This document shows, piece by piece, positions 18,348 to 32,000 of a stretch of 32,000 nucleotides of DNA. The translations under genes were made by a program, and so were the position numbers. Under the pieces are notes generated by a model. The model had not been told where the DNA came from. It saw only the letters and a program-made list of their open reading frames with translations, and did not search any database. Each line of letters begins with the position of its first letter. Positions within the stretch are counted from its first letter, which is position 1. This stretch comes from Acidovorax sp. FHTAMBA (GTDB lineage Bacteria; Pseudomonadota; Gammaproteobacteria; Burkholderiales; Burkholderiaceae_C): the NCBI RefSeq assembly GCF_038958875.1, contig NZ_CP152407.1, forward strand, positions 1,890,489 to 1,922,488. The letters are read 5' to 3'.

Positions 18348-19697
18348 TTAGAGTGCGGTTCCCGCGCTGCAAAGCGACGCCACCGCGTGGGCCACGGCCG
18401 TGCCGCTCAGCACCGCGCCCTCCAGCGTGGCGGGGTAGGGGCCTTGCGTGTAGTCGCCGCAGGCCCACAGGCGCGGGGCCAGGGCGCAGGCAGGGCGCTG
18501 CAGGGCGGGGGTGCAGGCGAAGGTGGCGCGCTTTTCCACCACGGTCTGCACGGGCCGCAGCCCGGCCAGGCCCAGCTGGCGGGCGGCCTGGTGCAGCACG
18601 CCCGCTTCGAGCGTGTCGCGCTCGCCATGGGCATCGCTCACCACAAACGCCAGCAGCCCGGCGGGGCCGCCCAGCTGGCCCCGGTCAAACACAAACTGCG
18701 CGGGCTGCCCCGGGCCCGGCCGCAGCGCCAGCATCGGCTGCGGCAACACGGCGGGGGCGCCCGGTGCGGCCTGGGCGTACACCGTGCCGATGGCGGTAAA
18801 GCGCAGCGCCTCGGCCGTGGTGGCCCAGGCGTCGAGGGTGCGCGCTTCGGGCGCGGGCAGGCTGGCCTGGGCGGCGCGGGCCAGGCGCGCCGCTTCGGTG
18901 CTGGAGGTGGCCAGCACCACGGCGTCAAACAGCTCGCCATCCACCCGCCAGCCTTGCGCAGTGCGCGCCAGGGCTTGCACGCGGCGCCCGGTGTGCACGC
19001 GTGCGCCGCGGGCCTGCAACCATTGCGCAGCAGTTTCGGGGAAAAGCGTGCCCAGGTCGGTGCGCGGCAGCAGCAGGTTGGAGCCACCCCGGCCGCTGAA
19101 CAGGCTGTCGCGCAGCACGCGCAAAAACACCTGGCCGCACGCCTCCTGCGAGGGCGTGTTCAGCGCCGATACGCACAGCGGGTCAATGAATTCGGCCATG
19201 AGCCGCGGGGGCAGCTTGACGCACAGCTGCTGCACCGTGGTGTCCGGCGCGCAGCGAAAGCCGCGCACACGCCACAGCGCGGCGGTGCGCAGCAGGGCCA
19301 GCTTGTCACCCGGCGGCCAGCCCCGCGCACGGGCAATGCCCAGCAGCGCATCCCAGGGCGGGGGCAGATCGGGCAGGCGCAGGCCCGTGCCGTCGGGGAA
19401 GACCAGGGCCAGCGGCAGGCGCAGCAGCGCGCTATCCACATCCACGCCCACCTGGCGCATGAGGCGCAGGCTTTCCGCATAGGCACCGATGAGGATGTGC
19501 TGGCCGTTGTCCAGCACCAGCGGTTCGCCCTGCACGCCGTGGCCGCTGAAGGCCCGGGCCCGGCCCCCGGTGGCGCGCGCAGTCTCGAACACCGTGGGCA
19601 TGATGCCGGCCTGCGCCAGGCCCACGGCCGCCGCCATGCCGGCCCAGCCTGCACCGATCACCGCCACGTTCATCGAGGGGACGCCTTGGGTCTGCAC
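18348..19697 (-). CDS. hpnE: Hydroxysqualene dehydroxylase (FAD-dependent amine-oxidase/phytoene-desaturase fold)
   Basis: ORF 18348..19697 (GTG start; alternative ATG at 19673 giving MNVAVIGAGWAGMAAA, the dinucleotide-binding motif). About 440 aa, and it lies 4 nt downstream of the hpnD-type gene. Confidence 0.8.
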   Translation of the reverse strand: MQTQGVPSMNVAVIGAGWAGMAAAVGLAQAGIMPTVFETARATGGRARAFSGHGVQGEPLVLDNGQHILIGAYAESLRLMRQVGVDVDSALLRLPLALVFPDGTGLRLPDLPPPWDALLGIARARGWPPGDKLALLRTAALWRVRGFRCAPDTTVQQLCVKLPPRLMAEFIDPLCVSALNTPSQEACGQVFLRVLRDSLFSGRGGSNLLLPRTDLGTLFPETAAQWLQARGARVHTGRRVQALARTAQGWRVDGELFDAVVLATSSTEAARLARAAQASLPAPEARTLDAWATTAEALRFTAIGTVYAQAAPGAPAVLPQPMLALRPGPGQPAQFVFDRGQLGGPAGLLAFVVSDAHGERDTLEAGVLHQAARQLGLAGLRPVQTVVEKRATFACTPALQRPACALAPRLWACGDYTQGPYPATLEGAVLSGTAVAHAVASLCSAGTAL

Positions 19698-19701
19698 GCC
19701 G

Positions 19702-20559
19702 CTACATCCGGCCCAGCGCCTGAACCTTCCACGCCAGCCAGAACTTGCGCAGCGGCGTGAGGCGGATGCGCTGGTGCAGCACCTGGAAGCTCTCGTGCTC
19801 GATCTCGCGCAGCAGCGTGCGGTAGATGTTGGCCATCATCAGGCCGGGCTTTTGCGCGCGGCGGTCGGCATCCGGCAGCAGGGCAAAGGCCTCGTCGTAC
19901 AGCCGGTGCGCGCGCTCGGCCTGAAACCGCATCAGCGCGGTGAAGCGGTCGGAATACGTGCGCTTCAAAATCTCGTGCGCCTTCACGTCAAACTGCTGCA
20001 GCTCGCTCACCGGCAGGTAAATGCGGCCCAGCATGGCGTCTTCGCCCACGTCGCGGATGATGTTGGTGAGCTGGAACGCCAGGCCCAGCGTGTGGGCGTA
20101 TTCGGTGGTGCGCGGCTCGGTCTGGCCAAAGATGCGCGCCGCCACCTCGCCCACCACACCCGCCACCAGGTGGCAGTAGCCCTTGAGCCCCGCAAAGTCG
20201 AGGTAACGGGTCTGCTCCAGGTCCATGTGGCAGCCGTCAATGACGGCCTGCAGGTGGCGCTGCTCGATACCGAATTCCGCCGTGTGCGGCATCAGCGCCA
20301 GCATCACCGGGTGGGTGGGCTGCCCCGCAAAGGCCTTGGCCACCTCGGCCTGCCACCACGCGAGCTTGGTGCTCGCCACGCCGGGGTCGGTCACTTCATC
20401 CACCACATCGTCCACCTCGCGGCAAAACGCATAAAACGCCGTGATGGCCGCACGGCGCTGCGTGGGCAGAAACAGGAAGGCGTAATAGAAGCTGCTGCCC
20501 GAGGCGGCGGCCTTTTGCTGTACGTACTGCTGCGGTGTCATGGGGCGCGATTGTCCCAT
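19702..20559 (-). CDS. hpnD: Presqualene diphosphate synthase (squalene/phytoene synthase family)
   Basis: ORF 19702..20559 (alternative ATG 20541). QQKAAASGSSFYYAFLFLP and YAFCREVDDVVDE (first Asp-rich motif) match HpnD-type sequences as I remember them. The second Asp-rich region is NIIRDVGED. Confidence 0.85.
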   Translation of the reverse strand: MGQSRPMTPQQYVQQKAAASGSSFYYAFLFLPTQRRAAITAFYAFCREVDDVVDEVTDPGVASTKLAWWQAEVAKAFAGQPTHPVMLALMPHTAEFGIEQRHLQAVIDGCHMDLEQTRYLDFAGLKGYCHLVAGVVGEVAARIFGQTEPRTTEYAHTLGLAFQLTNIIRDVGEDAMLGRIYLPVSELQQFDVKAHEILKRTYSDRFTALMRFQAERAHRLYDEAFALLPDADRRAQKPGLMMANIYRTLLREIEHESFQVLHQRIRLTPLRKFWLAWKVQALGRM

Positions 20560-20763: not shown

Positions 20764-21876
20764 TCAGGCTATTGTCAGCCGTTCCCGGGCCAACCTTGTT
20801 CCCTCTGCGAGCGCCTGCAGCTTGCGCCACGCTACATCCCGTCCCATCGGCGCCAGCCCGCAATTCGTGCATGGGAATAGGCGCTCCTTGGGCACGAATT
20901 CCAGCGCCCGACCGATGGTGTCGGCCACCTCCTCTGGGGTTTCCACCACGTCGCTGGCCACATCGATCACGCCCACCATCACGTCCTTGCCGGCCAGCAG
21001 CTTCATGAGATCGGGGGGCACGTGGGAGTGGATGCATTCCAGGCTCACTTGGTCGATGCTGCTTTTAGCCAGCGCAGGGAACACCGTCTCGTACTGGCGC
21101 CATTCCTCGCCCAGCGTGCTTTTCCAGTCGGTGTTGGCCTTGATGCCGTAGCCGTAGCAGATGTGCACTGCCGTCGTGCAGGTGAGGCCTTGTGCTGCAC
21201 GCTCGAGCGCCTTCACACCCCAGTCGGCGGCATCCTTCATGTAGACGTTGAAGGCGGGTTCGTCAAATTGAATGATGTCAACACCGTCGGCCTGCAGCGC
21301 GAGGGCCTCCTGGTTGAGCAGTTCGGCAAACGCGAAAGCCATCTTGACCTTGTCGCCGTAGAAACGGTCCGCCACGGTGTCGACGATGGTCATCGGTCCG
21401 GGCAGGGTGAACTTCAGCTTCTTCCTCGTATGCGCGCGCGCCAGCTGTGCTTCGAAGGCATGCACGCGGCCTTTGAGGCGCAACGCGGAGACGACCTGCG
21501 GCACCATCGCGTCGTAGCGGTTGTCGCGGATGCCCATCTTCACCTTGTGCTCGAAATCGATGCCATCGACCTGTTCGAGGAAGCCGTGCACGAAGTGCTG
21601 CCGCGATTGCTCGCCGTCGCCCACGATGTCCAGACCCGCGTCTTCCTGCGCCTTGATCCACAGCAAGGTGGCGTCGGCCTTCGCTTGGCGCAGTGCATCG
21701 CCTTCGGCCATCCATTGCGGCCAGAGTTTGTTGGTTTCCGCCAGCCAAGCCGGCTTCGGCAGGCTCCCGGCAACAGAGGATTCAAAGAGCTGCGCGACAC
21801 CGTTTGAACGCGGATGGCTCGACGCAGGGAAGACCGAGCTGGAGGGGAGCTGCGTGGCAGGCAAAGAATTCTTCAT
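20764..21876 (-). CDS. mesD: Short 'core-MetE' cobalamin-independent methionine synthase homolog (MesD-type)
   Basis: ORF 20764..21876 (370 aa). It covers only the C-terminal MetE catalytic barrel. The Zn-ligand contexts are conserved relative to E. coli MetE as I remember it: VHICYG (H-x-C), VSLECIHS (Glu) and TNCGLAP (Cys); GVIDVASD parallels GVYDIHSP. It is adjacent to a DUF1852 gene. Confidence 0.85.
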   Translation of the reverse strand: MKNSLPATQLPSSSVFPASSHPRSNGVAQLFESSVAGSLPKPAWLAETNKLWPQWMAEGDALRQAKADATLLWIKAQEDAGLDIVGDGEQSRQHFVHGFLEQVDGIDFEHKVKMGIRDNRYDAMVPQVVSALRLKGRVHAFEAQLARAHTRKKLKFTLPGPMTIVDTVADRFYGDKVKMAFAFAELLNQEALALQADGVDIIQFDEPAFNVYMKDAADWGVKALERAAQGLTCTTAVHICYGYGIKANTDWKSTLGEEWRQYETVFPALAKSSIDQVSLECIHSHVPPDLMKLLAGKDVMVGVIDVASDVVETPEEVADTIGRALEFVPKERLFPCTNCGLAPMGRDVAWRKLQALAEGTRLARERLTIA

Positions 21877-21904
21877 GAATGCGATTTGGATGTTGTTGGA
21901 TTGG

Positions 21905-22888
21905 TCAGTGCGCGAAATCAGCAGCCCATTCCTCGAGAACGTTCTTGTACGGCTTGATGAAATTTTCCTCCGTGAACTTGCCTTGTTTCACTGCCAGCTG
22001 GCCCCGTTCCTCTCGGTCGTAGACGATGCGGGTCAATGAGTAGTCCAAGTTTCTAAGGCTGGGTTGAAAGAAACTTCCTGCTGCGGAATTGGCGTTGTAG
22101 ATCTCGGGCCGATAGATTTTCTGAAACGTCTCCATGGTGCTGATGGTGCCGATGAGCTCGAGGTCGGTGTAGTCCCCCAGCAGATCGCCGACAAAGTAGA
22201 AAGCCAACGGCGCGACGCTGTCTGGCGGCATAAAGAAGCGAACCCGCATACCCATCTTCTCGAAGTACCGGTCGGTCGGGGAAAGCTCGTTCTGCCGGTA
22301 TTCGGCGCCCAGGACAGGATGCCGATTGCCAGACTGGTGGTAGGTCTTGCTGCTTGAGGCGCTGATGCAGATCACCGGCGGTTTGGCGAACCATTTTTTG
22401 TAGGTATCCGAGCCCAGGAAGTGCTTGAAAAGCTTCCCATGCAGGTCGCCGAAATCAGTGGGAGTACCGAACTCGGAGCTGTCGATGTTGTGCGCCGGAA
22501 GCACGACGCTGAAGTCGTAGTCGCGGAGGTAGGACGAAAAATTGTTCCCGGCAATTCCGTCAATGCGTCTGCCGGTTTGCTTGTCAACGATGTTCGGTTT
22601 CAGTATTTCAATCAGCGGGAACACGTCACTGCCGCTCCCGGCGCCCATGTTCATCTCAACGGAGATGATTTCAAGCTCGACGGCATAGCGATCTCCCGTA
22701 GGGTTGTCCCAATGCGCCAAGCTGTTGAAACGGTTGTCGATCATCTTCAGGGTGTTGCGCAAGTTCTCCTGGCGGCTGTTCCCGCGGGCCAGGTTGGCGA
22801 AGTTGGTTGTGATGCGCGTGCTGTCCGACGGCTGGTAGTTTTCATCGAACCGGATGCTCTTGATGCTGAAGGTGAAGTGTTTGCTCAT
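21905..22888 (-). CDS. mesX: DUF1852-family protein (MesX-type partner of MesD)
   Basis: ORF 21905..22888 (327 aa). MSKHFTFSIKSIRFDENYQPSDSTRITTNFANLARG... matches what I recall of DUF1852. It lies 28 nt upstream of the core-MetE gene on the same strand. The family assignment is from memory and needs an HMM check. Confidence 0.75.
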   Translation of the reverse strand: MSKHFTFSIKSIRFDENYQPSDSTRITTNFANLARGNSRQENLRNTLKMIDNRFNSLAHWDNPTGDRYAVELEIISVEMNMGAGSGSDVFPLIEILKPNIVDKQTGRRIDGIAGNNFSSYLRDYDFSVVLPAHNIDSSEFGTPTDFGDLHGKLFKHFLGSDTYKKWFAKPPVICISASSSKTYHQSGNRHPVLGAEYRQNELSPTDRYFEKMGMRVRFFMPPDSVAPLAFYFVGDLLGDYTDLELIGTISTMETFQKIYRPEIYNANSAAGSFFQPSLRNLDYSLTRIVYDREERGQLAVKQGKFTEENFIKPYKNVLEEWAADFAH

Positions 22889-22932
22889 GATGGTCAGGTG
22901 CGCTGGTTTTGATTCGAAGTCCGATGCTTGTG

Positions 22933-23514
22933 TCAGGTCGCAACCACATCCTCAGCGTGGACCGATCGTGCAAGTTTTGCCAACCCGAGAAGGGGCAAAG
23001 CCCGTTGGACTGCGAGCTGGGCTCTCTGGATCAAAGCCACGTTCTGCAGCCGGTAGTCCGAGAAATCTTGGTCGGTCGCGTAAACACCCAACGGCAACGT
23101 GCGCGCTTGAAAAAAGCTGAACAGCGGCCGCAACTGGTGGTCGATCACCAAGGCATGGCGCTCGCTGCCGCCGGTGGCAGCCAGCAAGACCGGCTTGTCG
23201 ATCAGGGCGTCCTGGTGAATGAAGTCGAAGAAGTGCTTGAACAGTCCCGTGTAGGAGCCACGGTAGACCGGTGTGGCCACCACCAGGACGTCAGCTTGCT
23301 CGACCGCGGCAAGTTCGCGCTCCACCACGTCGGGCAACTGGGAGCGCCAGACCGCGCCCGCAAAGTGCGGTGCGAGCTGGCCCAGCTCGACCAAGCGTTG
23401 TTCGCACGGAATTGCGTCGGCGATCAGATCCAGCAGATGCTCCGAAAGGGCCACGGCTTTGGAGGGGCGTTGAAGTCCGCCGGAAACTGCTACTGCGCGA
23501 AGTGGACGTGTCAT
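22933..23514 (-). CDS. NAD(P)H-dependent FMN reductase (SsuE/MsuE-like)
   Basis: In-frame ATG at 23514 within ORF 22933..23556. MTRPLRAVAVSGGLQRPSKA, ADVLVVATPVYRGSYTGLFKHFFD and LAATGGSERHAL are typical of the SsuE/MsuE flavin reductase family. It lies 44 nt upstream of the DUF1852 gene on the same strand. Confidence 0.85.
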   Translation of the reverse strand: MTRPLRAVAVSGGLQRPSKAVALSEHLLDLIADAIPCEQRLVELGQLAPHFAGAVWRSQLPDVVERELAAVEQADVLVVATPVYRGSYTGLFKHFFDFIHQDALIDKPVLLAATGGSERHALVIDHQLRPLFSFFQARTLPLGVYATDQDFSDYRLQNVALIQRAQLAVQRALPLLGLAKLARSVHAEDVVAT

Positions 23515-23605
23515 TTTGGTGTGGCGATCAAGGTTTCTCAAACGTCCGGCAATCACGGAAAGGTTGAATCGTAGAGTTGACGAACCGTGAAGTAAAATGG
23601 TGTTA

Positions 23606-23631
23606 ATTCACGCATCCATGAATCTCACTCA
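23606..23631. promoter_or_regulatory. Candidate MetR/LysR operator
   Basis: ATTCA(23606-23610)-N8-TGAAT(23619-23623) is an inverted repeat overlapping TGAAtctcaCTCA (23619-23631). That second element is one mismatch from the TGAA-N5-TTCA MetR consensus. It sits in the 123-nt divergent spacer, 7-32 nt upstream of the regulator ATG. Confidence 0.35.
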
Positions 23632-23637
23632 TTTGCC

Positions 23638-24555
23638 ATGCTGGAGCGCGCTCATCTTTCCATCGTCCAAGAAGTAGACAAGCAAGGCTCACTTACCGCT
23701 GCCGCAGAGGTGCTGCACCTGACGCAGTCGGCGCTGAGCCACTCGATCCGCAAGCTGGAAGCCCAGATGGGCACCGAAATCTGGCAACGCGAAGGGCGCA
23801 GCCTGCGGCTGACGCAGGCGGGGCAGTACCTGCTGGCGGTGGCCAACCGGGTGCTCCCGCAGCTGGATCTGGCCGAAGAACGCTTGCGCCAGTTTGCGCA
23901 GGGCGAGCGCGGGTCGCTGCGTATCGGCATGGAATGCCACCCCTGCTACCAATGGCTGCTGAAGGTGGTGTCGCCCTACCTGGCGAGCTGGCCCGACGTG
24001 GACGTCGACGTGAAGCAGAAATTCCAGTTCGGCGGCATTGGCGCGCTCTTCGGCTACGAGATAGACCTGCTGGTCACCCCCGACCCGCTCTACAAGCCCG
24101 GTCTGCGCTACGAACCCGTGTTCGACTACGAGCAGGTGCTCGTGGTGCCGCGCGGCCATCGCCTGGCCAACGTGCCTTACGTGAAGCCCGCACAGCTGAC
24201 GCAGGAGGTGCTGGTGACGTACCCGGTTGCCACCGACCGGCTGGACATCTACAACATGTTTCTGATGCCCGCCGGCGTGACGCCCAGGCGCCACAAGTCG
24301 ATCGAAACCACGGACATCATGTTGCAGATGGTCGCGAGCGACCGCGCGGTGGCTGCACTGCCACGCTGGCTGGTCGAGGAGTACGCGCAGAAGATGGACA
24401 TCGTTCCTGTGCGGCTGGGTCCGCGCGGCATCGCCAAGCAGATCTTCCTGGGCGCGCGGGAAGCGGACACCGACATCGACTACCTGAAGTCCTTTGTCGA
24501 GCTCGCACGGCAATCAGGCGGCCTTGTCGACAAGGGGCAGGCCCCGGCCCTGTGA
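23638..24555 (+). CDS. metR: LysR-family regulator, MetR-like
   Basis: ORF 23638..24555 (305 aa). The N-terminal LSIVQEVDKQGSLTAAAEVLHLTQSALSHSIRKLEAQMGTEIWQREGRSLRLTQAG parallels the E. coli MetR HTH (..GSLAAAA..LHQTQSALSHQF..LE..LG). It is divergent from the methionine-synthase operon. Confidence 0.75.
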   Translation: MLERAHLSIVQEVDKQGSLTAAAEVLHLTQSALSHSIRKLEAQMGTEIWQREGRSLRLTQAGQYLLAVANRVLPQLDLAEERLRQFAQGERGSLRIGMECHPCYQWLLKVVSPYLASWPDVDVDVKQKFQFGGIGALFGYEIDLLVTPDPLYKPGLRYEPVFDYEQVLVVPRGHRLANVPYVKPAQLTQEVLVTYPVATDRLDIYNMFLMPAGVTPRRHKSIETTDIMLQMVASDRAVAALPRWLVEEYAQKMDIVPVRLGPRGIAKQIFLGAREADTDIDYLKSFVELARQSGGLVDKGQAPAL

Positions 24556-24595: not shown

Positions 24596-25456
24596 TCACG
24601 TGTAGCGCTTCTCCAGCGCGTCCCACTCGGGCTTGTTGACCAGGCGTTGGCGCTCGGCAAAGGTCGCAACCAGTCCGCTGGATTCCTGCACTTCCTTCAC
24701 GTCGCGCAGCACGGTCAGTGCCTTCTGCATGCCGGCCACCGCACCCTGTAGCGCGGCATTGGCATACAGCACGATGCCATAGCCCAGTTCACCCAGGTCC
24801 GTGGCATTGAAGATAGGCGTCTTGCCGCCGATCACCATGTTCATTAGTTGCGGCTTGACCAGACGCCGGGGCAGCGCGCGAATCTCATCGGGCGTGGTCA
24901 CGGCCTCAACGAAGAGGATGTCCGCACCGGCCTCGGCGAATTTCTGCGCCCGTTCGACAGCGGCTTCGAACCCGTGCGTGGCGGCCGCGTCGGTGCGAGC
25001 CATGATCAGGAGATCAGGATCTTGGCGCGCATCGACGGCTGCCTTGATCTTGCTGACGGCCTCTTCTGTGGAGATCACTTCCTTGCCCGAGAAATGGCCG
25101 CAGCGCTTCGGCGCCACTTGGTCCTCGAACTGGATGCAGTCGGCGCCGGCACGTTCGAGCGTGCGGACGGTGTGCCGCACGTTCAGTGCATTGCCGAAGC
25201 CGGTGTCGGCATCGACGATCAGCGGCACGCTGACCGCGTCGCGGATGCGCGCTGTGTGATCGGCGATGTCCGATAGGCCCATGAAGCCCTGATCAGGCAT
25301 GCCGAACCACATGTTGGTGACACCGGCGCCGGTGATGTAGATCGCCTTGAATCCCAGGTCTTCGACGACCTTTGCAGACAGCGCGTTGAATGCGCCGGGA
25401 ACGATCAGGCCGCGGCGGGCCTCGACGAGTGACTTGAGCTGCTTGCGGGTGGACAT
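24596..25456 (-). CDS. prpB: 2-methylisocitrate lyase
   Basis: In-frame ATG at 25456 within ORF 24596..25555. It shows MSTRKQLKSLVEARRGLIVPGAFNALSAKVVEDLGFKAIYITGAG, DADTGFG and the catalytic loop QVAPKRCGHFSGKEV. It is 286 aa and sits in prp context. Confidence 0.9.
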   Translation of the reverse strand: MSTRKQLKSLVEARRGLIVPGAFNALSAKVVEDLGFKAIYITGAGVTNMWFGMPDQGFMGLSDIADHTARIRDAVSVPLIVDADTGFGNALNVRHTVRTLERAGADCIQFEDQVAPKRCGHFSGKEVISTEEAVSKIKAAVDARQDPDLLIMARTDAAATHGFEAAVERAQKFAEAGADILFVEAVTTPDEIRALPRRLVKPQLMNMVIGGKTPIFNATDLGELGYGIVLYANAALQGAVAGMQKALTVLRDVKEVQESSGLVATFAERQRLVNKPEWDALEKRYT

Positions 25457-25470
25457 TCGAGTAATTCCGA

Positions 25471-26664
25471 TCAGAAACTGTCGCCGGGAACACGTACCCA
25501 GCCTTCCATCAATACGCGGGCGCTGCGGCTCATCAATGCCTTGGTGACCACCCATTCGCCGTCGACCTTGCTCGCCTCGGCGCCCACGCGAAGCGTTCCC
25601 GAGGGATGGCCGAAGCGCACGGCCTGGCGCTCGCCGCCGCCGGCCGCGAGGTTTACTAGCGTGCCGGGTATGGCGGCAGCTGTGCCGATGGCCACGGCCG
25701 CTGTGCCCATCATGGCGTGGTGCAGCTTGCCCATCGACAGCGCGCGCACCAGTAGGTCGATTTCCGCGGCGGCCACTGCCTTGCCGCTGGACGCCGTGTA
25801 GTCCTTGGGCGGCGAAACGAAGGCCACCTTGGGCGTGTGCTGGCGCCTGCCAGCTTCATCGACGTGATTGATCAAGCCCATCTTCACCGCGCCGTGCGCG
25901 CGGATGGTCTCGAACATGGCCATGGCCTTGGTGTCGCTGTTGATGGCGTCCTGCAGTTCGGTGCCGGTGTAAGCGATGTCGGCGGCGTTGACGAAGATGG
26001 TCGGAATGCCCGCGTTGATCAGCGTGGCGCGCAACGTGCCCACGCCCGGCACGTCGAGGTCTTCGACCACCTTGCCCGTCGGGAACATCGCGCCACCGCC
26101 TTCACCGTCGCCTTCGTCGGCCGGCTCGATGAACTCCAGTGGCACTTCGGCCGCTGGGAATGTCACGCCGTCGAGTTCGAAGGTGCCGGTTTCCTGCACC
26201 TGGCCAGCGGTGATGGGCACGTGCGCGACGATGGTCTTGCTGATGTTGGCCTGCCAGATGCGCACGGTGCACGTGCCGTTTTCCGGAATGCGCGCCGGAT
26301 CGACGAGGCCCTGCGCAATCGCGAACGGCCCGACCGCCGCCGACAGGTTGCCGCAGTTGCCCGACCAGTCGACGAACGCGCTGTCGATGGAGACCTGGCC
26401 GAAGAGGTAGTCGACATCGTGGTCCGGCCGCGTGGAGCGCGACAGGATGACAGCCTTGGATGTGGACGAGGTGGCCGCGCCCATGCCATCGATCTGCTTG
26501 GCGTAGGGATCGGGGCTGCCGATGACGCGCAGCAGCAGCGTGTCGCGCGCGGGACCGGGCTGGCGCGCCGCCGCGGGCAGGTCCTGCAGGCGAAAGAACA
26601 CGCCCTTGCTGGTGCCGCCACGCATGTAGACGGCGGGAATCTTGATCTGGGGAGTGGATGCCAT
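25471..26664 (-). CDS. prpF: 2-methylaconitate cis-trans isomerase (AcnD accessory protein)
   Basis: In-frame ATG at 26664 within the artefactually long ORF 25471..27627. MASTPQIKIPAVYMRGGTSKGVFF is the canonical PrpF N-terminus. It is 397 aa and lies directly downstream of acnD. Confidence 0.9.
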   Translation of the reverse strand: MASTPQIKIPAVYMRGGTSKGVFFRLQDLPAAARQPGPARDTLLLRVIGSPDPYAKQIDGMGAATSSTSKAVILSRSTRPDHDVDYLFGQVSIDSAFVDWSGNCGNLSAAVGPFAIAQGLVDPARIPENGTCTVRIWQANISKTIVAHVPITAGQVQETGTFELDGVTFPAAEVPLEFIEPADEGDGEGGGAMFPTGKVVEDLDVPGVGTLRATLINAGIPTIFVNAADIAYTGTELQDAINSDTKAMAMFETIRAHGAVKMGLINHVDEAGRRQHTPKVAFVSPPKDYTASSGKAVAAAEIDLLVRALSMGKLHHAMMGTAAVAIGTAAAIPGTLVNLAAGGGERQAVRFGHPSGTLRVGAEASKVDGEWVVTKALMSRSARVLMEGWVRVPGDSF

Positions 26665-26687
26665 TGCGATGAGGAGGGTGGTTGTCT

Positions 26688-29327
26688 TCAAGCGGTCGAC
26701 TTGTTGGCGGCCAGGAAGTCTTGCGCAAAACGCTGCAGCACGCCGCCGGCTTCGTAGATCGACACTTCTTCCGCAGTGTCCAGGCGGCAGGTCACCGGCA
26801 CCTGCAAGGTCTCGCCACTGCGGCGGTGAACGACCAACGTCAGGTCGGCGCCCGGCGCGGGTTTGCCGGCGACGTCGAAGGTCTCGGTGCCGTCCAGGAC
26901 CAGGGTGAGGCGCGTGGTACCGGGCTTGAACTCCAGCGGCAGCACGCCCATGCCCAGAAGGTTGGTTCGGTGGATGCGTTCGAAGCCTTCGGCCACCACG
27001 GTTTCCACACCCGCCAGGCGCACGCCTTTGGCAGCCCAGTCGCGAGACGAGCCCTGGCCGTAGTCGGCGCCGGCCACGATGATCAACGGCTGCCTGCGGT
27101 TCAAGTAGGTTTCGATGGCTTCCCACATGCGCACGATTTGCCCCTCGGGTTCGATGCGCGCGAAGGAACCCTTCTTCTGCACGCCGTCGACCACCGCCAT
27201 TTCGTTGACGAGTTGCGGGTTGGCGAAGGTGGCGCGCATGGCCGTCAGGTGATCGCCTCGATGCGTGGCGTAGGAGTTGAAGTCCTCTTCCGGCAGGCCC
27301 ATCTTGTGAAGGTACTCGCCGGCGGCGCTGTCCATGAGGATGGCGTTGGACGGTGAGAGATGGTCCGTCGTGATGTTGTCGGGCAGGATGGCTAGCGGCC
27401 GCATGGCGCGCAGCGTGCGCGGCACGGCCGCCAGTGCTCCCACGCCTTCGCTGTCCCAGTAAGGCGGGCGGCGAATGTAGGTCGACTGCGGCCGCCAGTC
27501 GTACTGCGGACTCACTTTTTCTCCGCTGTCGGCATGAATCGCGAACATGGGTTCGTAGACCTTGCGGAACATCTCGGGCCGCACCGACGCCGCGACGATG
27601 GCGTCGATCTCCGAGTCGCTCGGCCACAGGTCGCGCAAGCGGATTTCCTTGCCGTCAACGACGTCCAGCACGTCGCGCTCGATGTCGAAGCGCATGGTGC
27701 CCGCGATGGCGTAGGCCACCACCAGCGGCGGCGAGGCCAGGAAGGCCTGCTTCGCATAGGGGTGGATGCGGCCGTCGAAGTTGCGGTTGCCAGAGAGCAC
27801 CGCCGTGGCGTAGAGGTCGCGCTCGATGATCTCGTTCTGGATCTTCGGATCCAGCGCGCCGGACATCCCGTTGCAGGTGGTGCACGCGAAGCCTACGATG
27901 CCAAAGCCGAGCTGCTCCAGGTCGTGCAGCAGGTCGGCGTCGCGCAGGTACAGCTCCACCGCCTTGGATCCCGGTGCCAGCGACGACTTGACCCACGGCT
28001 TGCGCTTGAGCCCCAGTCGGTTCGCGTTGCGCGCGAGCAGCGCCGCGGCAATCACGTTGCGGGGGTTCGAGGTGTTGGTGCAGGAGGTGATGGCCGCGAT
28101 GATCACAGCGCCATCGGGCATCAGGCCTGCGGCCTCCTGCTGCCGGACATCGGCCAGGCCCACCGCGATGTTGCGCTCCGCCAGTTGCGATGTCGGCAGC
28201 CGGCGGTGCGGATTGGAAGGGCCGGCCATGCTGCGCACCACGCTCGACAGGTCGAAGCTCAGCACGCGCTCGTAGACCGCCGTCTTCAGCGCATCGCCCC
28301 AGAAGCCGGCCGTTTTCGCATAGGTCTCGACCAACGCGACCTGCGTGTCTTCACGGCCTGTGAGCCGCAGGTAGGTGAGCGTCTGCTCGTCGATGTAGAA
28401 GAGCGCGGCGGTGGCGCCGTACTCTGGACACATGTTGGAGATGGTGGCACGGTCCCCGACCGTCAGGCCCGGCGCGCCTTCGCCGAAGAACTCCAGGTAC
28501 GCACCGACCACTTTTTCCTTGCGCAGGAACTCGGTGAGCGACAGCACGATGTCGGTGGCGGTGATGCCCGGCTGGCGCCGGCCAGTGAGCTCCACGCCGA
28601 TGATGTCGGGTAGCCGCATCCACGAGGCGCGGCCCAGCATCACGTTCTCGGCCTCCAGGCCGCCGACGCCCACCGCGATCACCCCCAGCGCATCGACGTG
28701 GGGCGTATGACTGTCGGTGCCCACGCAGGTGTCGGGGAAGGCCAGGCCGTCCTGCACGTAGACCACCGGCGACATCTTCTCCAGATTGATCTGATGCATG
28801 ATCCCGTTCCCCGCCGGGATCACCTCCATGTTGGCGAAGGCGCGTTTCGTCCACTCGATGAAGTGAAAGCGGTCCTCGTTGCGCCGGTCTTCGATGGCCC
28901 GGTTCTTCTCGAAGGCCTGCGGATCGAACCCGCCGCACTCCACGGCCAGAGAATGGTCGACGATGAGTTGCACCGGCACCACCGGGTTCACCTGCGCCGG
29001 GTCGCCGCCTTCGGCCGCGATGGCGTCGCGCAGGCCGGCCAGGTCCACCAGCGCCGTCTGGCCCAGGATGTCGTGGCACACCACGCGCACGGGAAACCAG
29101 GGAAAGTCGCGATCACGCCGGCGTTCGATGAGTTGCAGCAGGCAGTCGTTCAGGATGGCCGGCTCGCAGCGCCGGACCAGGTTCTCGGCATGCACGCGTG
29201 CGGTATACGGCAGTCGCGCCCAGGCACCGGCCTGCAGCGCGTCGACGGCGGCGCGGGCGTCGATGTAGTCCAGTGCGGTGCCGGACAGCGGTTTGCGAAA
29301 TTCTTCGTGGGGCATGAGCATGTGCAT
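26688..29327 (-). CDS. acnD: Fe/S-dependent 2-methylcitrate dehydratase (aconitase family)
   Basis: In-frame ATG at 29327 (alternatives 29321 and 29315) within ORF 26688..29564. FRKPLSGTALDYIDARAAV...LPYTARVHAENLVRRCEP is the AcnD-type N-terminus. Aconitase Cys-ligand contexts are ITSCTNTSNP and GFACTTCNG. It is 879 aa. Confidence 0.9.
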   Translation of the reverse strand: MHMLMPHEEFRKPLSGTALDYIDARAAVDALQAGAWARLPYTARVHAENLVRRCEPAILNDCLLQLIERRRDRDFPWFPVRVVCHDILGQTALVDLAGLRDAIAAEGGDPAQVNPVVPVQLIVDHSLAVECGGFDPQAFEKNRAIEDRRNEDRFHFIEWTKRAFANMEVIPAGNGIMHQINLEKMSPVVYVQDGLAFPDTCVGTDSHTPHVDALGVIAVGVGGLEAENVMLGRASWMRLPDIIGVELTGRRQPGITATDIVLSLTEFLRKEKVVGAYLEFFGEGAPGLTVGDRATISNMCPEYGATAALFYIDEQTLTYLRLTGREDTQVALVETYAKTAGFWGDALKTAVYERVLSFDLSSVVRSMAGPSNPHRRLPTSQLAERNIAVGLADVRQQEAAGLMPDGAVIIAAITSCTNTSNPRNVIAAALLARNANRLGLKRKPWVKSSLAPGSKAVELYLRDADLLHDLEQLGFGIVGFACTTCNGMSGALDPKIQNEIIERDLYATAVLSGNRNFDGRIHPYAKQAFLASPPLVVAYAIAGTMRFDIERDVLDVVDGKEIRLRDLWPSDSEIDAIVAASVRPEMFRKVYEPMFAIHADSGEKVSPQYDWRPQSTYIRRPPYWDSEGVGALAAVPRTLRAMRPLAILPDNITTDHLSPSNAILMDSAAGEYLHKMGLPEEDFNSYATHRGDHLTAMRATFANPQLVNEMAVVDGVQKKGSFARIEPEGQIVRMWEAIETYLNRRQPLIIVAGADYGQGSSRDWAAKGVRLAGVETVVAEGFERIHRTNLLGMGVLPLEFKPGTTRLTLVLDGTETFDVAGKPAPGADLTLVVHRRSGETLQVPVTCRLDTAEEVSIYEAGGVLQRFAQDFLAANKSTA

Positions 29328-29335
29328 TGGATTGC

Positions 29336-30499
29336 TCAGTGGCGTTCTTCGATCGGCAGGAACTTCAAATCCTCGGGGCCGGTGTAGTTGGCACTGGGGC
29401 GAATGATCTTGTTGTCCACGCGCTGTTCGATCACATGCGCGGCCCAACCGCTGGTGCGCGCGATCACGAACAGCGGTGTGAACATGGCCGTCGGCACGCC
29501 CATCATGTGATAGCTCACCGCGCTGAACCAGTCCAGGTTCGGGAACATCTTCTTGACTTCCCACATGACCGATTCCAGCCGCTCGGCGATGTCGTACATC
29601 TTGGTGGTGCCCGCACCGTCGGACAGGCGCTTTGCCACGCCCTTGATCACCACGTTGCGTGGATCGCTCACCGTATAAACCGGGTGGCCGAAGCCGATCA
29701 CGACCTCCTTCGCCTCGACGCGGCGGCGGATGTCGACCTCGGCCTCGGCCGGGTTGTCATAGCGTTTCTGGATCTCGAAGGCCACCTCGTTCGCACCGCC
29801 ATGCTTGGGGCCGCGCAGTGCACCGATGGCGCCGGCGATCGCCGAGTGCATGTCGCTGCCGGTGCCGGCGATCACACGCGCGGCGAAGGTCGATGCGTTG
29901 AATTCGTGTTCGGCATAGAGGTTCAGCGAGGTGTGCATGGCGCGCTCCCACTCGGCACTGGGCTTCTTGCCGTGCAGCAGATGCAGGAAATGCGCGCCGA
30001 TGGAGTCATCGTCGGTCTCCAGCTCGATGCGCTTGCCCAGCGAAGACCAGTGATACCAATACAGAAGCATGGAGCCCAGTGATGCCATCAACCGATCGGC
30101 AATGTCGCGCGCGCCGGGCGTGCCGTGGTCGTCCTTCTCGGGCAAGGTGCAGCCCAGAGCAGAGACGCCGGTGCGCATCACGTCCATGGGGTGGGCGTTG
30201 GCGGGAATCTGCTCCAGCGCCCGCCTCACGCTGGCCGGCACACCGCGCATGGCCTTCAGCTTGGCCTTGTAGGCGGCGAGTTCGGCGCGCGTCGGCAGCT
30301 TGCCGTGCACCAGCAAGTGGGCGATTTCCTCGAACTCGCAGACCTCGGCGACGTCCAGAATGTCGTACCCACGGTAGTGCAGGTCGTTGCCAGTGCGGCC
30401 CACGGTGCACAGCGCGGTATTGCCGGCGGTGACGCCGGAGAGAGCGACGGACTTCTTGGGTTTGAAGGCAGGTGCAGTGGTTTCGGTCGTGGTGGTCAT
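29336..30499 (-). CDS. prpC: 2-methylcitrate synthase
   Basis: In-frame ATG at 30499 within ORF 29336..30670. It is 387 aa with citrate-synthase blocks: [35 protein letters not shown] and GFGHPVY. Confidence 0.92.
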
Positions 30500-30891
30500 G
30501 CTGTTTCCTTGTCCAGATAAGAGCGATTGATGGGGGCAGGGCGACCGGTGGCATCGACTGCCACCATCTCGAACACGCCCTTGAGGACTTCTTCCGCCGG
30601 GATGCCCGGCTTGTCGGCGATGCCGCTCACACAAACGGTCATCGAGCTGCGGCCGATACGGCTGACCCATCCGCGAAGGGTGAGCTGGTAGCCCACCGCC
30701 ACCGGCGATAGAAAGTCCACGCTGGTCACGCTTGCCATCACGACCTCTTGCTGCGCCAGTCCTCGTGCTGCCAGAAAAGCCGCCTTGGCCATCAACTGCA
30801 GCCCTTGCCCGGCGAACAGCGTGTCGTGGTGATTGGCATGCACCGGCAGCACCAGTTCGCGCAACTCGGCTGTTCCAGTGGGTGTTGTCAT
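30496..30891 (-). CDS. Hotdog-fold acyl-CoA thioesterase (YciA/BFIT-like)
   Basis: In-frame ATG at 30891 within ORF 30496..31368. The 131-aa product has [28 protein letters not shown], which fits the P..N..G.lFGG.lm..mD.aa pattern of acyl-CoA thioester hydrolases. Its stop overlaps the prpC start as ATGA (30496-30499). Confidence 0.7.
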
Positions 30892-30892
30892 G

Positions 30893-30985
30893 CTTCGCAA
30901 TTTACGCAGAAAATGCGCTTCACAAAAGGACTGAAAGGGCGAAGACTTGCGAATCAAATTCAGCAAAATTGCAAATCTTGCGAAG
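30893..30985. promoter_or_regulatory. Cluster of TTGCRAA half-sites, candidate ScfR/MccR operators in the divergent prp spacer
   Basis: The sites are CTTCGCAA (30893-30900, the inverted form of TTGCGAAG), CTTGCGAA (30946-30953), ATTGCAAA (30968-30975) and CTTGCGAAG (30977-30985). They resemble the TTTGCAAA-type motif reported for ScfR/RamB regulators, but the spacing differs from the published X4 arrangement. Confidence 0.4.
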
Positions 30986-31011
30986 ATGAGTGAGCTTGGC
31001 CTGTCAACACG

Positions 31012-32000
31012 ATGAAAAAAACGTTCATGGGGGTACGACTGCGCAAGCTGCGCGCCGAGCGCGGGATGTCCCAAACCGCTATGGCCAATGCGCTCGGGCT
31101 TTCCCCCAGCTACCTGAACCAGTTGGAGCAGAACCAGCGGCCACTCACCGTGGCCGTCTTGTTGAAGATCGACCGAGCGCTTGGGATCAACATCCAGGAG
31201 TTTTCGGAGGACGAGGAAGCGCGTCTGATCGCCGGCATGCGTGAAGCCCTGGCCGATGCGACTGAACCGGTATCGCTTCCAGAACTCAAGGAGGTGGCGT
31301 CGCAGATGCCCGCGTTGGGACGCGCGCTGATTGCCCTGCATCGGCGCAGCCTCGAGGTGCAGGAGCATCTCGAGACGATCGCGGTGCGCATGGGCGACGA
31401 CCGTTCGGACATCACTTCAGCACGGGCTATGCCTTTCGAGGCGGTGCGCGACTTCTTCTTTGCGCATCAGAACCACTTCGAAGAAATCGACCGGAACGCC
31501 GAGGCATTGGCCGCTGAAGCCGGTGTGCGCGGCGCACTCTTGGCCGACTGGCTGGTGCAGCGCCTGCTTCAGCGTCATAAGGTGCGCGTGATTCAGCTGT
31601 CCGACGAATTTGGTGGCAAGCGGCAGTACGACCCCGCGCACCGTACGTTGCGCGTGTCGGCGGCACTTGACCCGGCCCAACAGGTTTTTCAGCTCGCGAC
31701 GCAACTGGCACTCATTGAGCAGGCAGGCGCGATCGACTCTCTCGTCTCTGGCCACGCGTTGCTGCACGATGCGCCTTCCAAAAAGTTGGCACGCGTTGGT
31801 CTGGCCAACTACTTCGCTGGCGCGGTGCTGCTGCCGTACGGACAGTTTCTCGGCGAAGCCGAGCGGCTTCGCTACGACATCGATCTGCTGGGAAAACAGT
31901 TCGCCGTCGGCTTCGAGACGGTCTGCCACCGGCTCAGCACCTTGCAGCGTCCGGGCGCCCCGGGCGTCCCGTTCTTTTTCGTTCGGGTCGACCGAGCCGG
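31012..32000 (+). CDS. Short-chain fatty acyl-CoA regulator family (XRE HTH + DUF2083), MccR-like; 3' end beyond window
   Basis: This ORF is not in the track because it is open at the window edge. I translated frame 1 from the ATG at 31012: [53 protein letters not shown]...[31 protein letters not shown]. There is no stop to nt 32000. The XRE HTH and the [21 protein letters not shown] block are typical of ScfR proteins. It is divergent from the prp operon. Confidence 0.8.
   Translation, partial: [329 protein letters not shown]

Follow-up and report, generated by a model that had tools for sequence, protein, structure and literature searches.

The window considered here is a stretch of 32,000 nucleotides (nt) of contig NZ_CP152407.1 from Acidovorax sp. 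FHTAMBA, and all positions refer to it. Between 20764 and 24555 it carries a minus-strand operon of three genes, encoding in order of transcription an MsuE-type flavin mononucleotide (FMN) reductase, the DUF1852 protein MesX and the methionine synthase MesD, together with a divergent gene for a MetR-like LysR-type regulator (Table 1). A first-pass annotation, made from the letters and their open reading frames (ORFs) alone, had described a four-gene methionine module, and its coordinates proved right, as did the gaps of 44 nt between the reductase gene and mesX and of 28 nt between mesX and mesD. Neither promoter nor terminator was predicted between the three genes on their own strand, with the exception of one weak hairpin within mesX. 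Profile searches also matched the three products to the families proposed for them, namely FMN_red, MesX/DUF1852 and Meth_synt_2. We are highly confident that the locus is a MesX/MesD module, and we consider it probable that the region as a whole forms a self-contained aerobic methionine-synthase module driven by reduced FMN (FMNH2) and O2.

Table 1. Genes and predicted regulatory sites of the mesX-mesD locus in the window (aa, amino acids)
Feature	Position	Strand	Remarks
mesD	20764..21876	-	370-aa ORF; conserved domain from codon 30 (21789); Meth_synt_2, NF006589, 3RPD
mesX (DUF1852 / PF08908)	21905..22888	-	327 aa; full-length Pfam MesX match; upstream neighbour of mesD
MsuE-type NAD(P)H-dependent FMN reductase	22933..23514	-	first gene of the operon; TIGR03566, FMN_red, 4C76
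Predicted sigma-70 promoter of the operon	23568..23596	-	inferred from conservation
Operator site 2 (predicted)	23588..23610		23-bp imperfect palindrome TGAAtTAAcAccaTTTTAcTTCA; overlaps the -35 element
Operator site 1 (predicted)	23618..23632		ATGA-N7-TCAT, 6 nt upstream of the regulator ATG
MetR-like LysR-type transcriptional regulator	23638..24555	+	305 aa; divergent from the operon

In Acinetobacter baylyi, ACIAD3524 (DUF1852), adjoining a gene annotated as "metE", is needed for methionine prototrophy, and a metR deletion mutant could be isolated on condition that the medium was supplemented with methionine (de Berardinis et al. 2008, PMC2290942). Price, Deutschbauer and Arkin (2021), whose work the first-pass annotation had described accurately, named MesD and MesX and showed by genetics in Acinetobacter, Sphingomonas and E. 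coli that MesD requires MesX and O2 and needs neither MetF (so no 5-methyl-tetrahydrofolate, 5-methyl-THF) nor vitamin B12; mesX and mesD suffice in E. coli, MesD alone is inactive in vivo, and the pair gives no anaerobic complementation in E. coli and is found only in aerobes (PMC7857596). The same authors noted a flavin reductase gene as a frequent neighbour of mesXD and predicted MesX to be a flavin user (PMC7857596), so that the proposal that the reductase feeds MesX, also put forward in the first-pass annotation, is not original to it. In A. baumannii, B12 represses the DUF1852 gene (-8.3 log2) together with the neighbouring flavin reductase (-2.5; PMC12892962), and MesD-dependent strains have been reported to tolerate N2O (PMC13059711). 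We found no characterisation of the biochemistry of MesX or of the source of the methyl group in the literature searched, to mid-2026, in agreement with the earlier statement that this biochemistry is essentially undescribed.

The window locus shares with the MesD/MesX systems of A. baylyi ADP1 (ACIAD3523/ACIAD3524) and S. koreensis both protein families, the mesX-mesD order, the zinc and homocysteine residues, the presence of a flavin reductase in the cluster and the involvement of a MetR-type regulator. It departs from the ADP1 type in that an MsuE-type reductase (PF03358) lies upstream, instead of an HpaC/RutF-type one (PF01613) downstream; in that the regulator gene is adjacent and divergent, an arrangement known for metR of enterobacteria, whereas metR lies elsewhere in ADP1 (PMC2290942); and in that its MesD falls into a clade separate from that of Acinetobacter and has a relocated start codon. 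All in all, the window locus is a typical copy of a known, genetically defined system and is not novel as a kind.

For the 370-aa product of the last gene, Meth_synt_2 is the sole Pfam match above cut-off (107 bits, 1.2e-30), and Meth_synt_1, at 16 bits, stays below its cut-off of 27, which means that the N-terminal folate-binding barrel is absent. The NCBIfam model NF006589 ('methionine synthase') is passed with 583 bits against a cut-off of 392, whereas the full-length MetE model TIGR01371 is failed with 81 bits against 930. Across its whole conserved length of 341 residues the protein aligns with Protein Data Bank (PDB) entry 3RPD (E 1.6e-123), the crystal structure of a Shewanella MesD according to Price et al. 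2021 (PMC7857596). Alignment with 3RPD and with the T. maritima MetE structure 1T7L identifies the zinc ligands H238 and C240 (in HICYG), E280 (SLEC) and C339 (NCGL), the homocysteine contacts S38, E89 and D205, and the MesD-specific tyrosine Y243 (Tyr226 in 3RPD). The catalytic barrel, the His-x-Cys/Glu/Cys zinc site and the Ser/Glu/Asp homocysteine residues are those of MetE; unlike MetE, which uses 5-methyl-THF-triglutamate, MesD has no Meth_synt_1 barrel and, according to the literature, makes no use of 5-methyl-THF. Judged from these residues, MesD is a zinc-dependent homocysteine S-methyltransferase that has kept the MetE catalytic barrel and lost the folate-binding half. An AlphaFold2 model of MesD, for which the alignment was shallow (sequences of at least 85% identity), is poor (pLDDT, predicted local distance difference test, 43.4), and for its structural assignment we rely on the sequence identity with 3RPD. 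A core MetE devoid of the folate domain is also what MesA, MesB and MesC of anaerobes possess; for these a corrinoid protein has been proposed as the methyl source and they belong to strict anaerobes, whereas MesD is aerobic, does not depend on B12 and has MesX as its partner (PMC7857596).

The earlier reading of this protein as a 370-aa core MetE holds for the missing folate barrel and for the zinc and homocysteine residues, but not for the whole of the stated length, as the first 29 residues are unconserved in any homologue and the relatives start at the codon matching residue 30. In the Comamonadaceae/Ralstonia relatives the usual start reads GAAAGGAAT-N(6-7)-ATG TTT GAA, with GAAAGGAAT as the ribosome-binding site; at 21787-21789 of the window CTC replaces this ATG (CAAACGGTG...CTC TTT GAA) and the ribosome-binding site is lost. 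The only canonical mesD start in the window is the ATG at 21876, located 29 codons upstream and preceded by no obvious Shine-Dalgarno sequence. By comparison with the relatives, residues 1-29 (21790-21876) are most simply seen as a lineage-specific extension that arose through loss of the usual ATG, and because conservation begins at residue 30, the conserved MesD domain starts 115 nt, not 28 nt, past the mesX stop.

The second protein of the pair, the 327-aa product previously read as DUF1852, matches PF08908 (in Pfam "Putative oxygenase MesX", formerly DUF1852) from end to end, with 597.6 bits against a cut-off of 25 over positions 1-323 of 323. This is a small, isolated family: a search of 1.8 billion representatives retrieved only 328 clusters (50% identity level) at E<=0.001, many of them fragments. 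About 37 positions remain invariant in an alignment extended to members of 33-44% identity. Most of them are polar or aromatic (R, D, E, H, Y, S, T, N), and a few are glycines, prolines or hydrophobic residues; examples are R25, T28, N29, N32, E94, S118, S119, R122, D123, D125, H150, S176, Y183, Y259, R260, Y264, Y290, D291, R295 and Q302. The same family alignment yielded a confident AlphaFold2 model (pLDDT 91.5; predicted template-modelling (TM) score, pTM, 0.90). One distant homologue (40% identity; loci L082, 2290-3333(+), and L083) adjoins genes for a phosphoenolpyruvate carboxylase and a hybrid histidine kinase on a contig without mesD, and the contigs of the distant homologues of 33-44% identity are too short for informative context; remote members of the family may have a role independent of MesD.

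With regard to the reductase, the reading frame extends upstream as far as a GTG at 23556 (22933-23556, 207 aa), and the start is most likely the ATG at 23514 (193 aa) because the family models align from there. The protein scores 251.4 bits against TIGR03566 (MsuE, cut-off 212.5) and 95.7 bits against the flavodoxin-like Pfam family FMN_red, and its best PDB match is 4C76, 'FMN reductase (NADPH)', at 8.8e-45. More than 597 loci came to light when one genome per species was scanned for MesX, and the best 80, drawn from alpha-, beta- and gamma-proteobacteria, were analysed. In every one of them mesX directly precedes mesD on the same strand. An MsuE-type reductase gene lies directly upstream of mesX in 36 of the 80, found in Comamonadaceae, Achromobacter, Janthinobacterium, Stenotrophomonas and Xanthomonas; an unrelated reductase of HpaC/RutF type (PF01613; best NCBIfam match RutF) is encoded directly downstream of mesD in 26 others, from Pseudomonas, Acinetobacter, Burkholderia, Herbaspirillum and Rhizobiales, with weak PF01613 matches in two more loci. 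Both types together were encountered in none of the 80, and a third kind, a Flavodoxin_2/FMN_red protein, is encoded directly upstream of mesX in a single locus (L071, 7049-7834(+)). Analogous reductases have thus been recruited independently and to the exclusion of one another, which argues for a functional need for a supplier of FMNH2. This displacement pattern is the strongest available argument in the matter, and it points to reduced FMN as a real input to MesX/MesD. If FMNH2 is such an input, the general flavin reductases of E. coli would explain why mesXD is all that this host needs.

Apart from the reductases, clustering of the ORFs within 4 kb of mesXD brought out no widely conserved partner other than the LysR gene and a gene resembling methylenetetrahydrofolate reductase (MTHFR). 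The latter, a divergent ORF just past the MetR-like gene (PF02219, 38 bits, far under the MetF equivalog cut-offs), occurs in 18 of the MsuE-type loci (L001, 5331-6242(-); L004, L009, L011, L015, L020, L023, L032, L033, L037, L038, L041, L042, L045, L048, L061, L062 and L066). It is absent from the window and is an odd companion for a system reported to be independent of MetF.

The description of the LysR-type protein as MetR-like is upheld by both family and structure searches. MetR (PRK15421) is its best NCBIfam family with 214.7 bits, under the equivalog cut-off of 382, which is enterobacterial, and the next family reaches 109; among PDB entries, the effector domain is matched best by 4AB5/4AB6 (136 bits) and the DNA-binding domain by 5FO5, 'MetR'. 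A divergent ortholog (at least 79% identity) is found in 32 of the 36 MsuE-type loci. The predicted operon promoter of the window combines a -35 element TTTACT (23596-23591), a 17-nt spacer and a -10 element TACGAT (23573-23568), and is kept as TTTAC(T/G)-17 nt-TAGCAT in 31 related intergenic regions. The conserved intergenic block reads ATGA-N7-TCATGGAT, followed by GTGAAATAAnACCATTTTACTTCAT, about 12 variable bases and CTAGCAT; ATGA and TCATGGAT of operator site 1 show a conservation of 90% or more over 32 sequences, and the GTGAAATAAnACCATTTTACTTCAT block of operator site 2 is nearly invariant in beta- and gamma-proteobacterial loci. Site 1 contains TGAG-N5-TTCA (23619-23631), one mismatch away from TGAA-N5-TTCA, the MetR consensus derived from work on E. 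coli. As the window holds eight such motifs with one mismatch against 4.4 expected, which is not significant alone, we relied on cross-locus conservation alone as evidence for a MetR box; operator and promoter are shared by the window and 31 other loci. We infer from this layout a LysR-type activator that would regulate its own gene at site 1 and activate the operon from the site overlapping the -35 element. Another promoter, proposed by a consensus scan and overlapping the reductase start codon, was discounted, being a different site that is not conserved.

A search of the whole window with Rfam at gathering thresholds returned no family, hence neither a B12 nor an S-adenosylmethionine (SAM) riboswitch, and for this reason we regard regulation in the window as protein-based. 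In the mesXD loci of Rhizobiales, the region that separates the divergent genes holds a cobalamin riboswitch (118-136 bits), encoded on the same strand as the MetR-like LysR gene. It stands in the 5' leader of that gene in L029 (7571-7762(-)), L039 (7582-7795(-)) and L069 (7581-7786(-)); the LysR match lies 400-940 nt further from it in L024, L040 and L047, and L050 (7610-7824(+)) is the one locus in which it precedes mesX. In the riboswitch-bearing Rhizobiales loci B12 would act through the regulator, and control by B12 appears to have been reached by different routes in different lineages.

Across the loci, the two proteins differ in how their identities are distributed. MesD identities are bimodal, with a canonical clade that includes Acinetobacter (84-99% internally), to which Shewanella 3RPD appears to belong, and a Comamonadaceae/Ralstonia clade that includes the window (87-98% internally), the identity between the two being 53-60%; MesX forms a single continuum of 66-98% identity over the same loci. 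The MesD of the window has 56% identity (407 bits) to that of A. pittii, and its MesX 71% to that of Acinetobacter. The mesX-mesD spacer measures 29-142 nt (median about 105) in the window-type clade versus about 26 nt in the canonical one. Bimodal MesD, continuous MesX and the longer spacer together suggest that mesD was replaced long ago in the window-type clade. Several long spacers of the Comamonadaceae clade (L002, L004, L005, L008, L019) share a short CGGGCAAA-like motif, which is not evident in the window. The top MesD match, P0271, proved to be an assembly chimera with an internal duplication and was disregarded. Window-type proteins are common; those of Delftia, Acidovorax, Variovorax, Ralstonia and others bear the annotation "methionine synthase" and typically have 341 aa. 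Price et al. (2021) defined MesD by its similarity to ACIAD3523, with thresholds of 560 bits in phmmer (about 72% identity) or 390 bits in BLASTP; with the A. pittii ortholog as a stand-in for ACIAD3523, the 407 bits of the window protein would lie narrowly over the latter threshold and below the former, and the window-type clade may for that reason be under-counted in their proteome survey.

Taken together, it is tempting to propose the following mechanism. The MsuE-type reductase would make free FMNH2 from NAD(P)H, and MesX would bind FMNH2 and O2 much as the oxygenase component of a two-component flavin monooxygenase does, albeit on an unrelated fold. By oxidation, MesX would then make an activated methyl donor out of a common metabolite of central metabolism, or would itself become methylated, and the homocysteine thiolate held on the zinc of MesD would attack that methyl group to give methionine. 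The MetR-like protein, probably responsive to homocysteine, would activate the three-gene transcript and repress its own gene. A small NAD(P)H:FMN reductase encoded beside an O2-requiring partner is the pattern of MsuE/MsuD, SsuE/SsuD, RutF/RutA and HpaC/HpaB, and the reductases of the mesXD loci truly belong to the MsuE and RutF/HpaC families. MesX may thus work like the oxygenase half of such a system without membership in those families, with the difference that its proposed product is a methyl donor and not a hydroxylated or cleaved substrate. That the reductase feeds MesX, as the first-pass annotation suggested, gains comparative support from its conservation in the operon, its displacement elsewhere by an unrelated reductase and its position behind a MetR-type operator and promoter. 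For the FMNH2/O2 step at MesX in particular, we lean moderately in favour.

Several observations weigh against this mechanism. MsuE-type reductases usually serve sulfonate monooxygenases. The use of flavin by MesX is inferred from gene neighbourhood only, and searches of the PDB bring no help: in Foldseek the MesX model has nothing at E<=0.001 (best E 0.09, TM about 0.12-0.16), and phmmer and the family profile give no match among PDB chains even at E<=10. MesX is for these reasons placed outside any solved oxygenase or flavoprotein fold, and the missing Foldseek match excludes both a luciferase-like TIM barrel and an acyl-CoA-dehydrogenase-like oxygenase fold; against BFVD, Foldseek gave random-level matches. 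Across the wider family there is no invariant cysteine and one invariant histidine, so that neither a covalent carrier of the methyl group nor a metal site is obvious in MesX. No reductase is encoded nearby in 16-18 of the 80 loci, which, together with the fact that E. coli needs none added, suggests a reductase that is dispensable or redundant; the enrichment of these loci in Enterobacterales fits with the sufficiency of MesD and MesX in E. coli (PMC7857596). Finally, the MesD of the window is 56% identical to the characterised clade and has a moved start, and its function in Acidovorax sp. FHTAMBA is assumed.

The reductase-less loci, and the fact that no reductase has to be supplied in E. 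coli (PMC7857596), would also suit a reductase that is a mere bystander, engaged in sulfur scavenging or general redox and co-located or co-transcribed with mesXD, MesX drawing its oxidising power from a metal centre, H2O2 or a quinone. This is difficult to reconcile with the recruitment of two or three unrelated reductase families at different operon positions and in mutual exclusion, with the MetR-type promoter that the reductase gene shares, with the co-repression by B12 of the flavin reductase and DUF1852 in A. baumannii (PMC12892962), and with the lack of any sulfonate monooxygenase partner among the window ORFs scanned (none of the 24 main ones is of the luciferase-like MsuD/SsuD type). 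We consider such a bystander role quite unlikely. More improbable still is that MesX serves as an activator, assembly or repair factor for a MesD that takes its methyl group directly from a small molecule. The inactivity of MesD alone in vivo is compatible with a need for activation, and MesX has no recognisable catalytic motif or known fold; however, MesX is extremely conserved, with 66-98% identity across three proteobacterial classes, its set of invariant, mostly polar or aromatic positions is typical of an active site, and a chaperone role would leave both the O2 requirement and the linkage to reductases unexplained.

An alternative that makes direct use of flavin is a reductive route like that of ThyX or TrmFO, in which a methylene group from 5,10-methylene-THF or formaldehyde would be carried on the flavin N5 of MesX and reduced to methyl on homocysteine, O2 being required indirectly. 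Flavin-N5 methylene transfer is the established chemistry of ThyX and TrmFO. A flavin reductase would supply the reducing power for it, which an oxidase does not obviously need; folate one-carbon units are still available where MetF is dispensable (PMC7857596); and the MTHFR-like gene adjoins the regulator in the 18 related loci. But a purely reductive route leaves unexplained the anaerobic failure in E. coli and the occurrence in aerobes only, the fold of MesX is unlike that of ThyX, TrmFO or any folate enzyme, and the MTHFR-like gene is missing both from the window and from E. coli, where mesXD works. Of the rivals to the FMNH2/O2 mechanism we would rank this one first, and even so we hold it to be unlikely.

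As for the surroundings, the mesD side is flanked by hopanoid-type genes, namely a squalene/phytoene synthase gene (19702-20559) and an amine-oxidase-like gene (18348-19697). On the other side, a methylcitrate-cycle operon of AcnD/PrpF type (24596-31998) follows directly after the regulator, comprising a PrpB-like gene (24596-25555), PrpF, a long ORF (26688-29564), PrpC and a regulator with a helix-turn-helix and an M78 domain (ScfR-like); the long ORF we take to be a putative acnD. The G+C content of the module is 0.56-0.61, compared with 0.64-0.72 in the hopanoid-side flank and about 0.65 in the methylcitrate-side flank, where the difference is smaller. The complete module (LysR, MsuE-type reductase, mesX and mesD) also occurs on the 305-kb plasmid pOS401 (L027, AP026971.1, Comamonadaceae bacterium OS-4), and this plasmid copy, together with a G+C content below that of the hopanoid-side flank, gives a hint of horizontal mobility. 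Neither metH nor a full-length metE was found among the window ORFs scanned.

Hundreds of operons resemble the window locus, and NCBI models would already name its MesD-type gene "methionine synthase"; the interest of the locus rests on the unsolved chemistry of the family and not on special features of this copy. One may go further and imagine MesX as the founding member of a class of reduced-flavin enzymes that is new in structure, in which FMNH2 would be at once O2 activator and methyl carrier and MesD would demethylate an N5-methyl reduced flavin, which would then be a benzo-pteridine mimic of N5-methyl-tetrahydrofolate. Although we give this idea the lowest probability of all those considered here, it would, if true, explain both the repeated recruitment of reductases to mesXD and the loss of the folate half in MesD. 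The comparison provides handles for approaching this chemistry, i.e., FMNH2 as the likely input, a MesX fold without a solved relative, and two MesD clades served by one MesX clade, and the three proteins encoded by the Burkholderiales-type operon make up a natural set for use in reconstitution. MesX/MesD is among the few known routes by which methionine can receive its methyl group without folate, B12 or SAM.

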